Assembly (NCBI GenBank): GCA_944363685.1 | Contig: CALVUV010000001.1 | Coordinates: forward strand, 1-40,296 | Direction of reading: 5' to 3' | Source of the DNA: an uncultured Bacilli bacterium | GTDB lineage: Bacteria > Bacillota_I > Bacilli_A > RF39 > UBA660 | DNA: 40,296 nucleotides | Shown: positions 2,618 through 10,346 of the stretch, in pieces | Numbering within the stretch: the first letter of the stretch is position 1 | Layout: every line of letters begins with the position of its first letter | Translations under genes and position numbers: made by a program | The notes under the pieces: generated by a model | The model's input: the letters and a program-made list of their open reading frames with translations, nothing else | What the model was told of the DNA's origin: nothing | Database searches by the model: none

Positions 2618-2691
2618 GCCGGTATAGTTTAGTGGTAAAACAGATCCTTGGTAAGGATCAGAGGTAAGTTCAATTCTTACTTCCGGCACCA
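2618..2691 (+). tRNA. tRNA-Thr (anticodon GGU), CCA encoded
   Basis: Cloverleaf folded by hand: acceptor GCCGGTA/TTCCGGC, D arm TAGTTTAGTGGTAAAA, anticodon stem GATCC/GGATC with loop TTGGTAA, T arm GTAAG-TTCAATT-CTTAC, and terminal ACCA. Confidence 0.9.
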
Positions 2692-2736
2692 GTAAGCAAT
2701 CTGTCCGAACTTTTATAGTTAAGGGCTTAAATATAC

Positions 2737-2770
2737 AAGTATCAATTTCTAAGGAAGTTGGTACTTTTTT
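2737..2770 (+). terminator. rho-independent terminator after tRNA-Thr
   Basis: Stem AAGTATCAA / TTGGTACTT (one G-T pair) followed by TTTTT. Confidence 0.5.
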
Positions 2771-2799
2771 AGTGTTTAAGAAAGAAAGGACAGGTTTAA

Positions 2800-3075
2800 A
2801 TGGTAAATATTATAAAGGAAAAATTGGAAATTGATAACGAATTAAAGAAAAAAATTGAATTTATATGTAGTTTTTGTAATACTACTCCAATTATTATTAA
2901 TGGTAATATAAGAAAAATTAATAAAACAAATTTAAATTATATTGAACCTCATAGAATAATTATTAAAGGTATTACATTTCTAGCATTTAATTATTCTAAT
3001 GAAATATTTGTTGAAAATTTATCTAAAAACATTAAATTATCAGATTTAGAGACCTATATAAAACAAATAAACTAA
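2800..3075 (+). CDS. hypothetical protein (91 aa), island cargo
   Basis: ORF with AAAGGA upstream of the ATG. No recognizable motif. Confidence 0.5.
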   Translation: MVNIIKEKLEIDNELKKKIEFICSFCNTTPIIINGNIRKINKTNLNYIEPHRIIIKGITFLAFNYSNEIFVENLSKNIKLSDLETYIKQIN

Positions 3076-3162
3076 TTATATATAAATATACCAACTTCTT
3101 CTAAAATCACCTTTAAATAGGCAAAAAATGGGAATTATGTCTTGATTTTGCATCAGAAAAAA

Positions 3163-3191
3163 TTGACACCTATAGGTTTTTATGATATAGT
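3163..3191 (+). promoter_or_regulatory. sigma-A type promoter for the 192-aa cargo gene
   Basis: TTGACA (3163-3168), a 17-nt spacer ending in TGA, then TATAGT (3186-3191). Confidence 0.5.
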
Positions 3192-3215
3192 AATCCTCAA
3201 TTTAAGGGGGATATT

Positions 3216-3794
3216 ATGGAAAAGAAAGATTCTTTATTAATGTTAAAATATATGATATCAGAGGGATTTAATCCTAACAATTATGAAAGAATATTAGAAT
3301 TATTACAATCGGCACCACTATCATTATCAAAAAATTTAACAGAGTATAATCCATATTTATTATCTAATAAAGTAGTTTATTCAGAATTAGATGAGTATGG
3401 TATTGATGGAGCATATGGTTATTTGGAAGATAGTGAAATTTTGGTTCCTAAATCAATTTATAATGATAATCATTTTTTATATTCACCAGTAAAAAGATTG
3501 TATCCAAAACATAGTTATGGTGCACCAACTATTGATGAATTTGGAACTGTTATCTTTTTGGAGGATACATTAGAGGCAAAAACTAATGAAATCTATAATG
3601 CTATTAAGAATAGTTTAAATTTCAAAGATTTATATTTTGGATTTATCACAGAAATGTATCCACAAATAGATTATGGCGATCAAAGATTAGTATATGTGTT
3701 CCACCAATTAATGAATCAGTCAGATGGTTATAAATTATCATATGAAACAATTAGTGAAGAAAATAAAAAACTATATTTAATTAAGAAGAAATAG
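3216..3794 (+). CDS. hypothetical protein (192 aa), island cargo
   Basis: ORF with a strong AAGGGGG ribosome-binding site, its own consensus-like promoter and a terminator. No recognizable motif. Confidence 0.6.
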   Translation: MEKKDSLLMLKYMISEGFNPNNYERILELLQSAPLSLSKNLTEYNPYLLSNKVVYSELDEYGIDGAYGYLEDSEILVPKSIYNDNHFLYSPVKRLYPKHSYGAPTIDEFGTVIFLEDTLEAKTNEIYNAIKNSLNFKDLYFGFITEMYPQIDYGDQRLVYVFHQLMNQSDGYKLSYETISEENKKLYLIKKK

Positions 3795-3799
3795 AGGTG

Positions 3800-3839
3800 C
3801 AAAGACATAAAACCTAGTGTCTTTGTCGCCTCTTTTTTT
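3800..3839 (+). terminator. rho-independent terminator
   Basis: Stem CAAAGACA / TGTCTTTG followed by TCGCCTCTTTTTTT. It lies inside the longest-ORF N-terminus of the recombinase, which argues for the downstream ATG at 3868. Confidence 0.6.
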
Positions 3840-3867
3840 GATGAAAAATAAGAAAGGATTAAAGTTT

Positions 3868-8351: not shown

Positions 8352-8380
8352 TTCTTACTCGCACCAGATTTTGATATCAA
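8352..8380. repeat. second copy of the tRNA-3'-end-like motif, followed by a perfect 10-bp palindrome
   Basis: TTCTTACTCGCACCAGATT (8352-8370) shares TTCTTAC and GCACCAG with tRNA-Thr 2674-2692, and GCACCAGATT with 10287-10296. The palindrome TTGATATCAA (8371-8380) follows. Confidence 0.4.
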
Positions 8381-8474
8381 ACTTATACTTTTCAATTTTT
8401 CATAATAGTTGATTAGTTTGAGTTTTATTATTTAAAATAATATAATTTTTAGACTTTTTAGGGGGGGAGTAAAA

Positions 8475-9029
8475 ATGTTTGTACCACATAGTCCAGATAT
8501 GGTTTATGATGTAGAAAGGCATTCTGATAGATGTGTTTGTGGATGTTCTGCACTTGCCACTTGTCATGATTATAATAGTGTTAATTGTGGCTACTGTGAG
8601 AGCTGTGCTAAAAAAAGAACAGATTTTGTTAATGATATTACAGGTATAATATCAGTTGGTGAAGAAAACAGTTTTGAATATGCAATATTAGCCACAATTG
8701 AAAATATAAGGCAAAATATATTTAAAGAGAGATTTTATTATATGGTTGATAACTATTTTGGGCAACATCAAAATAATAGTGAATTTACTGAACCATATGA
8801 TGATGCATCCTTTATAGCAAAAATATATAGAGAAAAATATTGTATGATGCAAACTTTTATATCTAGTATTGTACTACAAAATGAAAATAAATTTTCTAAA
8901 TCAAGCAGGATTAAAAGAGTATTTTCTTATTATAAATCAGAATTAGAAGCTACAATAAAAAAAGATGAAGATATTCTAGAAAAATGGACTGCTAAGGCTG
9001 GAGGTTATTCTTATAAAAAAGCAAAATAA
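8475..9029 (+). CDS. hypothetical protein with a Cys-rich N-terminus (184 aa)
   Basis: Strong GGGGGGAG ribosome-binding site. The N-terminal segment CVCGCSALATCHDYNSVNCGYCESC holds 8 Cys in about 25 residues. Confidence 0.6.
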   Translation: MFVPHSPDMVYDVERHSDRCVCGCSALATCHDYNSVNCGYCESCAKKRTDFVNDITGIISVGEENSFEYAILATIENIRQNIFKERFYYMVDNYFGQHQNNSEFTEPYDDASFIAKIYREKYCMMQTFISSIVLQNENKFSKSSRIKRVFSYYKSELEATIKKDEDILEKWTAKAGGYSYKKAK

Positions 9030-9075
9030 CATGTTATTATCCTTTTCTCAGTGAAGAATACAAAAATATTAGAAA

Positions 9076-9113
9076 AAGAATACGACTACTTTAATTATTC
9101 GTATTCTTTTTTT
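9076..9113. terminator. bidirectional rho-independent terminator between convergent genes
   Basis: Stem AAGAATACG / CGTATTCTT, flanked by an A-run upstream and a T-run downstream. Confidence 0.6.
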
Positions 9114-9185
9114 ATATTAAACTTTTGAAAATTTAGAAACATACTCGCACATTGGCAAAAAACAACAATCATGTGTATTAAAATA

Positions 9186-9644
9186 TTATCTTGTTTTACC
9201 CTTAGAATATGGTTCATAAGATAAGTATTCTTCATTTTCATCTTTAATCCAATAACCAAATCTTCCAACTAACTTAACAGGTTTCTCTAAAGGTTTAAAA
9301 TCAAGATTTTTTGTATTTGAGGCTTTCGCTCCTTCAGCAAGTGATGCAGTAATATGAGGTGTTTTTAAAACAGATGGATTTTGTTCATCATAATTTATAT
9401 AATAATCTTTCAATTCATCAGGAAATGTTATTTCAAATCCACTATTTTGTCCATCATTACCATAACCTATAAGATATACTTCAAATGTTTTTCCTACTAT
9501 ATCATTAAAAATCTCATCAGTTGTTGGGTGATATTTAAAAGTACAATGTATTTCATCATCAACTCTAGCTAATTTTTCTGTTTCTAACGAATGTATCAAA
9601 TCGACCATATCTGCTTCAAAAAATATTCCTTCATAACTTAACAT
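9186..9644 (-). CDS. 2H-superfamily phosphoesterase-like protein (LigT/cyclic phosphodiesterase fold), 152 aa
   Basis: Two H-x-T-x motifs in hydrophobic context, at the spacing expected for 2H enzymes: EIHCTFKY (His33) and TPHITASL (His97). AGGGAGA ribosome-binding site. It lies 14 nt downstream of the HAD gene. Confidence 0.5.
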   Translation of the reverse strand: MLSYEGIFFEADMVDLIHSLETEKLARVDDEIHCTFKYHPTTDEIFNDIVGKTFEVYLIGYGNDGQNSGFEITFPDELKDYYINYDEQNPSVLKTPHITASLAEGAKASNTKNLDFKPLEKPVKLVGRFGYWIKDENEEYLSYEPYSKGKTR

Positions 9645-9658
9645 ATATATTTCTCCCT

Positions 9659-10117
9659 TTAATCTATTAATTCAGAATCTTGACATAATATTATGTTTTT
9701 CAAACCATCATGAACAGTTCTCAATGTTTCATTGTCATCATCAATAAAAATAATTTGTTCATCATTTTTTAAAGATTTTAAATAATTCAATTTTAATTCT
9801 TTTGATGAATAATGTGGATAACTTTCTTTTGGAATAATAGTTCTTTTATCTTTTTCAAAGAAAGGTGCATATTTATTTAACCACTCATTTTTTTCGCTTA
9901 CTTCATTATTAAATCTACAAACCGATAATATATGTAGTTCAACATTTTTCAAATTGCATAATTGACTTAATGTTTCAATATTTGTAGTTAAAGGTCTTTT
10001 ATTTACAAAATCAAGTGGTTTTCCAAAATCATAAGAAGCAATTACACCATCCATATCAACATAGATAATAGTTTTTTTATCTTCAGTTAATCTCTTTATC
10101 AATTCATAAAAATGCAT
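9659..10117 (-). CDS. HAD-superfamily 5'(3')-deoxyribonucleotidase-like (NT5C type) hydrolase
   Basis: HAD motif I IYVDMDGVIA and motif IV IFIDDD. Size and layout fit the NT5C family. Confidence 0.6.
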   Translation of the reverse strand: MHFYELIKRLTEDKKTIIYVDMDGVIASYDFGKPLDFVNKRPLTTNIETLSQLCNLKNVELHILSVCRFNNEVSEKNEWLNKYAPFFEKDKRTIIPKESYPHYSSKELKLNYLKSLKNDEQIIFIDDDNETLRTVHDGLKNIILCQDSELID

Positions 10118-10261
10118 ATAGCATACCCATTTCTTTAAAAATAAAAACTATATTAATTATATTACATTATAATCAAAATTTAAATAGAAACATTGATTTT
10201 TGCTATATGTAACACTATACTTTTATTAGTTAATAGTTATTACTAACTTTTTTTGTCCAAG

Positions 10262-10296
10262 AAGTTCTTCTACTTCTTACCTAACGGCACCAGATT
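10262..10296. repeat. degenerate copy of the tRNA-Thr 3' half (candidate distal att / displaced tRNA end)
   Basis: AAGTTC..TTCTTAC..CGGCACCAG (10262-10293) parallels tRNA-Thr 2666-2692 (AAGTTCAATTCTTACTTCCGGCACCAG). The downstream CGAACTTT also recurs after the tRNA. Confidence 0.4.
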
Positions 10297-10346
10297 GATT
10301 GTTACTCGAACTTTCTTCGAACAGTAATAAATATTAATTAGAAATA

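Follow-up and report, generated by a model that had tools for sequence, protein, structure and literature searches.

A probable array of small integrative mobilizable elements at the 3′ end of a tRNA-Thr gene in an uncultured gut Bacilli bacterium, and a family of large serine recombinases found at tRNA and tmRNA ends

The window analyzed in this work is a stretch of 40,296 nucleotides that constitutes a complete 40.3-kb contig (C1; CALVUV010000001.1) of a 1.24-Mb metagenome-assembled genome (MAG; GCA_944363685.1; roughly 25% GC, 66% complete) of an uncultured bacterium of the Bacilli, whose close relatives, labelled uncultured Bacilli or Candidatus Onthousia, derive from the gut of chicken, rabbit, mouse and human. 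The DNA that follows its tRNA-Thr(GGT) gene is best interpreted as a stacked array, starting from the tRNA 3′ end, that is made up of small integrative mobilizable elements (IMEs) and in which an intact element, here called IME-A, would have been inserted by its own large serine recombinase (LSR), whereas the older modules beyond it have decayed; on the grounds of the sequence comparisons presented below, we estimate the probability of this interpretation at about 0.85. An initial annotation, made from the letters of the window, had placed here two accreted elements, namely an IME endowed with a serine recombinase and a MobV relaxase and a module lacking a recombinase, bounded by three copies of a motif resembling a tRNA 3′ end, and had left a choice between a serine recombinase that uses this site and an older tyrosine-integrase island within which the IME had landed.

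IME-A lies between the first two copies of the motif and measures 5675 bp, core to core (2687–8366). Its boundaries emerge from the comparison of the tRNA-Thr neighbourhood in about 30 congeneric species, the tkt protein of which is 80–97% identical. Four of these species (G057, G059, G006 and G018) have an empty site reading ...TTCTTACTTCCGGCACCA[G/T] followed at the junction by ATTTTGATGTCAAACTT (in its fuller form, ...CCGGCACCA[G/T]ATTTTGATGTCAAACTT), which is equivalent to window position 2691 joined to 8367 onward, the tRNA being fused to the counterpart of 8352–9040 at 91–95% identity. The 7.6-kb segment between the first and the last copy of the motif, the presence of which in all relatives would have spoken against an inserted element, is therefore not common to all of them; on the other hand, the empty site that had been predicted, with tRNA-Thr leading directly into the clpX-like gene, is absent among the relatives searched, where the empty sites lead into 8367 onward. 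Furthermore, a fifth species (G020) carries the same element with 5667 of the 5675 bases identical (99.86%), while the identity amounts to 92.13% in the 2.6-kb tkt flank and to 90% in the cysK-like gene; there, unlike in the window, the right flank switches directly after GCACCAG to a sequence that resembles the tRNA flank of another species (G016). A 92% relative of IME-A in yet another species (G015) has a third right flank, and in both G020 and G015 the flank changes directly after the right arm and core of the element. The presence of the same unit in different flanks at one tRNA end indicates that IME-A moved between species, and the near-identity of the two copies suggests that this transfer was recent. 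IME-A thus has its own LSR, its own relaxase with a candidate origin of transfer (oriT) and discrete ends with matching empty sites, and the first two motif copies bound a true serine-recombinase/MobV IME, as had been proposed. Its gene content is also as first described (two small open reading frames (ORFs), LSR, Mob_Pre relaxase and metallophosphoesterase), and none of its six ORFs matches a gene of a type IV secretion system (T4SS) in Pfam, PHROG or NCBIfam.

The three copies of the motif are found in the sequence where they had been reported. The first, AAGTTCAATTCTTACTTCCGGCACCAG (2666–2692), is the 3′ end of the tRNA-Thr(GGT) gene (2618–2691, plus strand; identified by ARAGORN, with its CCA encoded), which is intact in more than 20 congeneric genomes and has tkt (533–2515, minus strand) as its upstream neighbour; the second is TTCTTACTCGCACCAGATT (8352–8370) and the third AAGTTC..TTCTTAC..CGGCACCAG (10262–10293). 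The pattern TTCTTACN{0,6}GCACCAG matches the window three times, always on the plus strand, compared with 0.01 matches expected (none of 100 shuffles reached three), and in the whole 1.24-Mb assembly it matches these three sites alone, the reversed control pattern giving none. A chance origin of the TTCTTAC..GCACCAG matches, which had been named as a point to be checked, is thereby set aside; the shuffle statistic is generous, the pattern having been chosen post hoc, but the comparative evidence decides independently. The copies are nonetheless not the long direct repeats of tyrosine-integrase type that they had been taken for: the true identity spans just 5–7 nt and the rest imitates the tRNA 3′ end in a shortened or lengthened form and resides in the attP arms of the elements themselves. 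The stretch GCACCAGATT..TGAT that copies 2 and 3 have in common was confirmed, and is due to the relatedness of their right-hand arms. As to the perfect palindrome TTGATATCAA that had been noticed after copy 2, it is indeed present (8371–8380), yet its perfection is incidental, four relatives reading TTGATGTCAA; being not conserved, it was ruled out as a functional site.

That the serine recombinase itself uses the tRNA end, one of the two possibilities initially entertained, is indicated by the distribution of its relatives. A search for these, in one genome per species, gave 317 matches; 79 loci were kept and 68, having enough upstream sequence, could be evaluated, with LSRs 61–100% identical at the amino acid level. 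In 54 of the 68 a tRNA gene on the same strand ends 494–1335 bp (mostly about 590 bp) upstream of the LSR; these tRNAs comprise 13 isoacceptors, namely Gly(TCC, GCC, CCC), Thr(GGT, CGT), Leu(CAA, GAG, TAG), Cys, His, Phe and Arg(CCG, TCT), and make up most of the 72 tRNA genes present in the 79 loci. The target is a tmRNA in three further loci, so that 57 of the 68 relatives are found at a tRNA or tmRNA, and the arms of the elements vary together with the LSR clade. Most of the other loci have, where the tRNA would be expected, a sequence resembling the right (P) arm of an element, which points to a tandem junction. Scanning of the metagenome contigs of an independent collection with the 24-mer CACCAGTARGCAATCTGTCCGAAC yielded 31 junctions, 21 at tRNAs and 9 at other P arms, and added Thr(TGT) and Arg(CCT) to the targets. 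Different genes are occupied even by LSRs that are 100% or 99.4–99.7% identical, with 3-kb backbones 99.6–99.9% identical, as in the case of Gly(TCC) versus Thr(CGT), a tRNA with U73; further sets of near-identical LSRs are distributed among Thr(GGT), tmRNA and Leu(CAA), or between Thr(GGT) and Leu(CAA). All this strongly suggests that one and the same enzyme accepts different tRNA targets.

The genome to which the window belongs contains other members or remnants of the family. Contig C9 (7495–9825) has an LSR (58% identity), a MobV gene and a homologue of the first small gene of IME-A at tRNA-Cys; an LSR fragment lies at a CACCA-ending tRNA on contig C148, a left (P′) arm follows tRNA-Gly(TCC) on contig C22, contig C132 has a junction between a P and a P′ arm, and a further member or remnant is on contig C106.

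The anatomy of the attachment sites is as follows. The last 26 nt of the tRNA constitute the B arm of attL, with the core CACCA (C72–A76) at 2687–2691, and are followed by the P′ arm of IME-A (2692–2714, plus strand; G TAAGC AATCTGTCCGAACTTTT), a 23-mer that recurs, identical or nearly so, at 79 genomic and 31 metagenomic loci, where it adjoins the CCA of many different tRNA or tmRNA genes. At the other end, copy 2 of the motif belongs to the P arm of IME-A (8337–8366, plus strand), which consists of AAGTTTGAAATAACTTTCTTACTCG and the core CACCA (8362–8366); this 30-mer terminates 14 A-type elements identically and, as a close variant, two more (16 in total). It looks like a tRNA 3′ end but is three bases shorter than the real one, whereas elements inserted at Gly tRNAs have the right arm AAGTTTGAAATAACTT-TCCCAAC-CG+CTCCA instead. 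The motif copies are therefore the elements' own attP arms. The position of the exchange is delimited by two diagnostic bases: position 71 agrees with the tRNA at attL, where it is G, C or A, and with the element at attR, where it is always G, while position +1 is that of the element at attL (always G in A-type elements) and that of the flank at attR (G or T), so that the exchange must fall within the five nucleotides C72–A76. The pentanucleotide of the P arm is the same as that of the target in all 29 elements with two known ends (16 A-type with CACCA, 8 with CTCCA and 5 of a third type).

Serine-integrase att sites are imperfect inverted repeats of about 40–50 bp with a 2-bp crossover, the half-sites of attP being longer than those of attB (PMC3783163). 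The sites of the present family share a core of 5–7 nt, and scanning of the reconstructed attP for dyad symmetry gave C72–N73 as the best centre in both A-type and Gly-type elements (CTTACTcgCAccAGTAAG and TTTCCCAAccgCTccaTTGGGAAA), the centre of attB being ambiguous. The favoured crossover dinucleotide is accordingly placed at C72–N73 (C72–A73 here). If this centre is adopted, both arms of attB contain an AGTT-type motif at a distance of 19.5 bp, the left one being G53TTC of the T-loop, and the attP arms contain it at 22.5–23.5 bp, i.e., 3–4 bp farther than in B and B′. This offset seems to resemble the case of the Listeria LI integrase, in which the zinc-ribbon motif is shifted 5 bp outward in attP (PMC3783163).

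What follows IME-A appears to be the residue of earlier arrivals. Between copies 2 and 3 no recombinase is detected with Pfam, PHROG or NCBIfam, as the initial annotation had stated, and the segment is derived from elements, which argues for accretion. While accretion is real, its extent had been underestimated, at least three layers being distinguishable (IME-A, module 2 and an open-ended module 3), and copy 3, which had been taken as the boundary with the chromosome, is instead an internal, attP-like junction between the P and P′ arms of a second, distantly related type of element. This B-type element is found at the same tRNA in two relatives (G019 and G021), where it encodes an 88-aa ORF, an LSR 43% identical to that of the window, a MobV relaxase and cargo. 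Its left end, the tRNA followed directly by ATTGATAGGAAACTCGAAC..., matches window 10294–10361 and its right end, ...GAAGTTGTTTTACTTCTTCCTTTAGGGCACCAG, matches 10226–10293. In the window, the P arm that contains copy 3 (10260–10292, plus strand; core CACCA 10288–10292) has 81–84% identity with the elements of G019 and G021 at their right ends, and the P′ arm that adjoins it (10293–10361, plus strand) is 83–84% identical to the sequence right after their tRNA-Thr. Since the right and left ends of the B-type are contiguous, copy 3 is arranged like an attP that has not been cut, and would correspond to the junction where two B-type elements meet, one with its P arm and the other with its P′ arm. 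Junctions of this kind exist in G054 (A-like P with B-type P′), G060, G011 (B-type P with A-family P′) and G068, as well as on 9 metagenome contigs.

Module 2 itself (8367–10292) begins with a left part (8367–9040, plus strand) that comprises a P′/B′-like arm (GATTTTGATATCAAACTT) and the Cys-rich ORF184 (8475–9029), followed by the relic of a B-type relaxase gene (9064–9157, plus strand), namely its last ~9 codons (..LEKEYDYF..) and the terminator, which share 86–90% identity with the 3′-terminal part of mobV in the elements of G019 and G021. It is most simply read as a decayed element that has lost its recombinase and nearly all of its relaxase gene and, having att-derived flanks (cores at 8362–8366 and 10288–10292) and neither a recombinase nor a relaxase of its own, would correspond to a cis-mobilizable element (CIME); the junctions on its two sides are of P–P′ type, and a B-type LSR capable of acting on it in trans was not found in the assembled 66% of the genome. 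Module 3 is represented by a ClpX-like AAA+ gene (10347–11744, minus strand), which begins inside the P′ arm and lacks a recognizable right boundary. No orthologue of this gene was found in the genus, either by protein in 24 genomes (best match 37%) or by DNA in 52, which qualifies it as strain-specific accessory DNA rather than chromosomal flank; from 11782 onward, a position within the 3′-terminal part of the cysK-like gene, the relatives are homologous again, and none of the CACCA[G/T] sites of the window provides a fourth core that would close the module.

A number of facts weigh against the interpretation of the locus as a stacked array or against the recombination mechanism attached to it. 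The source is a MAG only 66% complete, and the exact junction that a circular form of IME-A would contain, its P arm joined to its P′ arm, has no match in the metagenome contigs, although 31 junctions of the family are present there; the explanation is presumably that circles or tandems of two A elements were simply not assembled in that collection. The dyad scores (16/26) do not exceed the 99th percentile of the shuffled maxima (17), the dyad centre of attB is ambiguous and the B-type attP gives none. According to the canonical model attL is not a substrate for LSRs, and the growth of an array is not explained by it. Finally, module 2 is not a clean unit extending from att to att: with respect to G057, G059 and G006 the segment 9041–11781 behaves as an indel, the right edge of which lies inside the 3′ end of the cysK-like gene, so that general recombination must also have shaped the array. 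The last finding, together with the lack of att-like ends of this indel, is what sustains a reading in which only IME-A was integrated site-specifically, whereas homologous or illegitimate recombination between the variable regions of related strains brought in or rearranged modules 2 and 3, copy 3 included, to yield a mosaic rather than a succession of integrations; the pair of HAD and 2H genes of module 2, the homologues of which occupy several places in the variable regions of the relatives, and the hypervariability within the genus of the DNA from the tRNA end (2692) to about 17.2 kb would fit in with it. We nevertheless regard it as rather unlikely in this exclusive form, inasmuch as the B-type P–P′ junction and the mobV relic show derivation from B-type IMEs and P–P′ junctions are frequent in many genomes, as befits repeated integration beside residents; moreover, mosaic recombination and stepwise integration are not mutually exclusive. 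Far less probable, and close to refuted, is that an older island of a tyrosine integrase at tRNA-Thr left the copies as scars and that the serine IME landed in it by coincidence: a tRNA 3′ end with direct repeats is the classic signature of such enzymes (PMC4383910, PMC5704250), and seven tyrosine recombinase genes reside on other contigs of the genome, yet contig C1 has none (PF00589), the ends of the element coincide exactly with the copies in two species having different right flanks, 57 of the 68 LSR relatives stand at a fixed distance from a tRNA or tmRNA end, and the repeat arms move along with the element and differ according to the LSR clade.

A narrower alternative concerns the cut, which could occur in the universal CCA (C74–C75 or C75–A76) or just after it, the agreement at position 73 reflecting binding specificity only. 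Indeed, with the five core bases identical in both partners, the sequence alone cannot place the cut, and the best dyad centre of the attB of G057 is C75–A76 (14/26). Dinucleotides that include +1 are excluded because, among the 16 A-type elements, this base is G at attL but either G or T at attR; C72–N73 is the best dyad centre in two attP types, and in 29 cases out of 29 the P arm and the target have the same N73, an agreement that a cut in the CCA would not need. A cut in the CCA is accordingly held to be doubtful; as for the dyad symmetry, it is suggestive in two attP types but, not being significant with respect to the shuffles, was discarded as a proof of the crossover.

Returning to the stacked array, the following course of events can be envisaged. 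The LSR would recombine attP (P arm, CACCA core and P′ arm) with the tRNA end, strand exchange within the shared C72-A73-C74-C75-A76 rebuilding the tRNA exactly, as the comparison of the junctions shows; for transfer, MobV would nick the conserved candidate oriT while a helper would supply the conjugation pore. In the relatives with an empty site the tRNA is followed by the left arm of module 2, which implies that IME-A entered between the tRNA and a resident remnant and, in turn, that the site formed by the tRNA and the arm of an element served as its target; such a site would still be a target after occupation, and arrays would grow from the tRNA outward. In line with what outward growth predicts, the tRNA-proximal element is intact and 99.86% conserved, whereas the distal ones are decayed. 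A more general proposition, possible but advanced here only tentatively, is that these LSRs read the generic architecture of tRNA as the left half of attB, recognizing the T-loop GTTCRA at a fixed distance from the discriminator-CCA, cutting at C72–N73 and demanding little of the right half, so that the occupied tRNA–arm site would stay competent; the distance is fixed because the lengths of T-stem and acceptor stem are invariant. If this were true, any tRNA or tmRNA gene with a matching 72–73 dinucleotide would be a landing pad, and arrays would grow outward from the tRNA, contrary to the rule that serine integrases ignore attL.

As to the genes of IME-A, the LSR (3817–5721, plus strand; 634 aa as listed, the true start being probably an internal ATG) matches Resolvase (PF00239; 1e-33, 116.9 bits), Recombinase (PF07508; 2.5e-16, 60.2 bits) and the integrase family phrog_95 (2.6e-112). 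It presents what is expected of a large serine recombinase, i.e., a catalytic domain with the intact motif YIRVSTEDQ, which contains the nucleophilic Ser, a Recombinase domain, a Cys4 zinc ribbon and a coiled coil; its C-terminal half has the Cys pairs CPKC...CNVC and then a K/E-rich helical stretch, the Zn_ribbon_recom profile matching, below cut-off, only the B-type homologue. The nearest solved structure is the catalytic domain of TP901-1 integrase, and neither plasmid nor phage records contain an LSR more than 35% identical. Residues ~500–634 (about 130 aa; window 5320–5721) are matched by no Pfam, PHROG or NCBIfam model; these last ~130 residues may form an extra domain relevant to the choice of the target. 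DUF4368 is not detected in the protein (Pfam).

Upstream of the LSR gene lies orf91 (2800–3075, plus strand), a conserved backbone gene of the family that is 60–96% identical in nine members and 41% identical to the 88-aa ORF of the B-type element. Its AlphaFold2 model is confident (predicted local distance difference test, pLDDT, 88), with no fold match in the PDB and no match in Pfam, PHROG, NCBIfam or PADLOC; given where it lies and how well it is conserved, it is a candidate for a directionality factor or a regulator, but its assignment to a known factor of either kind finds no support in profiles or folds and was dropped. The next gene, orf192 (3216–3794, plus strand; no family match in Pfam, PHROG, NCBIfam or PADLOC), is an accessory insert between orf91 and the LSR gene present in some members only, the distance from the tRNA end to the LSR start being about 590 bp in most relatives and 1120–1335 bp where the insert is present. 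Beyond the LSR, the candidate oriT (5862–5931, plus strand), formed by the hairpin CTAAGGTTgcctAAACCTTAG and a long inverted repeat (CCCCCATATTTTGA...TCAAAATATATAGGGGG), directly precedes mobV; its block AGGTTGCCTAAACCTTAGCCCCCA+TTTTGAT recurs in about 40 family members, 2.5–3.2 kb from attL. The relaxase (5941–7359, plus strand) matches Mob_Pre (PF01076; 2.6e-16, 60.5 bits against a cut-off of 25.5) and has the metal-binding motif HFDESSPHLH (around 6515), of the form HxDE..PHxH, while its score with the NCBIfam MobV equivalog, 26 bits, is below the required 100. On another contig of the same genome (C83) positions 101–439 and 5181–5552 contain, at a contig end, a fragment that resembles a T4SS coupling protein (PF02534, 67.9 bits) and a weak match to VirB4; the former hints at a possible conjugative helper.

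The cargo of IME-A is a calcineurin-like metallophosphoesterase (7433–8269, plus strand; Metallophos_2 7.8e-20, phrog_246). Module 2 has two cargo genes on the minus strand, recognized by their translation and weak PHROG matches, a HAD/NT5C-like gene with the motif DMDGV (9659–10117) and a 2H-phosphoesterase-like gene with two HxT motifs, HCTF and HITA (9186–9644); homologues of this pair are found elsewhere in the variable region of G052, G006, G067 and G061. Three unrelated genes of phosphoesterase type, without a PADLOC match, are thus contained in 2.7 kb of mobile DNA (7433–8269 and 9186–10117), and may act on nucleotide signals. With regard to known defence systems, PADLOC gave nothing significant for the cargo of the window, only weak AAA+ matches being returned for the ClpX-like protein. 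The cargo of the B-type element of G019 (locus L059, G019:C23, 4731–6039) comprises a Pycsar-like pair, i.e., a PycTM effector (2.5e-10) and a weak nucleotide cyclase match; anti-phage systems are thus among the genes that this family transports.

In a wider setting, the region 2692–17250, which includes the cysK-like gene, a DUF1835 gene, a radical SAM pair and a 2-hydroxyacid dehydrogenase, is hypervariable across the genus, synteny (adhesin-like gene and sortase) being conserved again from 17176–17272 in nearly all relatives. Four loci, L066 (G004:C18), L064 (G067), L068 (G008) and L046 (G068), have the tRNA-Thr gene and its upstream promoter region twice, 1–2 kb apart, and in G004 the tkt-proximal copy has an altered acceptor stem (CCAGCACCA); in these species the whole tRNA appears to have been duplicated by an element or by rearrangement.

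According to reviews of Firmicute IMEs, those with serine integrases insert within genes and disrupt them, and tRNA 3′ ends are the targets of tyrosine integrases (PMC5357655, PMC5704250); integration of serine recombinases in tRNA genes was considered rare by Ghinet et al. (2011), who listed eight mycobacterial AICEs (elements of actinomycetes that integrate and conjugate) in tRNA-Leu and phage phiRSM1 in tRNA-Ser (PMC3218068), and the LSR survey of Durrant et al. classifies targets by the protein genes disrupted, tRNA being unmentioned (PMC10083194). In the literature we found no description of an LSR family hopping among many tRNA and tmRNA genes. By its gene set IME-A can be likened to Tn4451/Tn4453 of Clostridium perfringens and Clostridioides difficile (TnpX LSR, TnpZ Mob/Pre), also small mobilizable elements of Firmicutes with an LSR, a Mob_Pre relaxase, an adjacent oriT and cargo, that excise as circles and rely on the conjugation pore of a helper (PMC5704250). 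Tn4451, however, has low specificity, with a 2-bp GA target and very short flanking repeats (PMC5704250), whereas the IME-A family is found at tRNA and tmRNA ends, which are rebuilt, and DUF4368, typical of the multi-targeting TnpX-like clade (PMC10083194), is not detected in the LSR of the window; with insertions confined to tRNA/tmRNA ends or element junctions and no DUF4368, an assignment to the Tn4451/TnpX type was ruled out.

The Dehalococcoides ssrA islands (McMurdie et al. 2011) offer a parallel in that a serine recombinase (DsiB, CcrB-like) operates at a tRNA-like (tmRNA) 3′ end, with 3′-end repeats and tandem arrays whose recombinase-less members were read as cis-mobilizable, as here (PMC3146451). 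Their target is ssrA alone, as opposed to at least 13 tRNA isoacceptors and tmRNA, with a 20-bp repeat and a cut inferred in the T-loop instead of a 5-nt core at the discriminator-CCA, and they carry a six-gene module with DsiA and DsiB on the reverse strand and no MobV (PMC3146451), whereas a single LSR is found here. The mycobacterial AICEs and phiRSM1 also have serine recombinases that enter tRNA genes, but with one target tRNA each, without a MobV IME backbone and with no target hopping among tRNAs reported; the former are actinomycete conjugative elements with FtsK-type transfer and the latter is a filamentous phage, the enzyme of which is called just a serine recombinase (PMC3218068). 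The outcome is the same as with the IMEs and integrative and conjugative elements that use tyrosine integrases (streptococcal elements, PMC5357655; Islander, PMC4383910), i.e., a tRNA 3′ end kept functional and a displaced tRNA-like fragment, with tandem accretion and decayed, recombinase-less CIMEs as here. The enzyme class is unrelated, the identity between the partners amounts to 5–7 nt and not to tens, and the far-end copy, which is a true duplicate in tyrosine-integrase islands, is here an indel-bearing mimic in a recombinase-binding arm of roughly 25 bp.

Textbooks and software tie islands at tRNA ends to tyrosine integrases, and the large family found in these uncultured gut Bacilli departs from that, as well as from the rule that serine IMEs disrupt genes (PMC5357655, PMC5704250); it follows that island finders keyed to tyrosine integrases miss or mis-assign such elements. 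The window contributes clean before and after sites of one element in two species and, in addition, an array of three layers in which, next to an uncut attP-like junction, the order of arrival is preserved. The elements of the family cross species with a cargo that consists of phosphoesterases here and of a Pycsar defence system in a neighbouring species. Finally, an enzyme that takes many tRNA ends, and apparently also an occupied site, represents a natural experiment in how serine integrases read DNA and might also provide integrases for which every genome already contains a landing pad.

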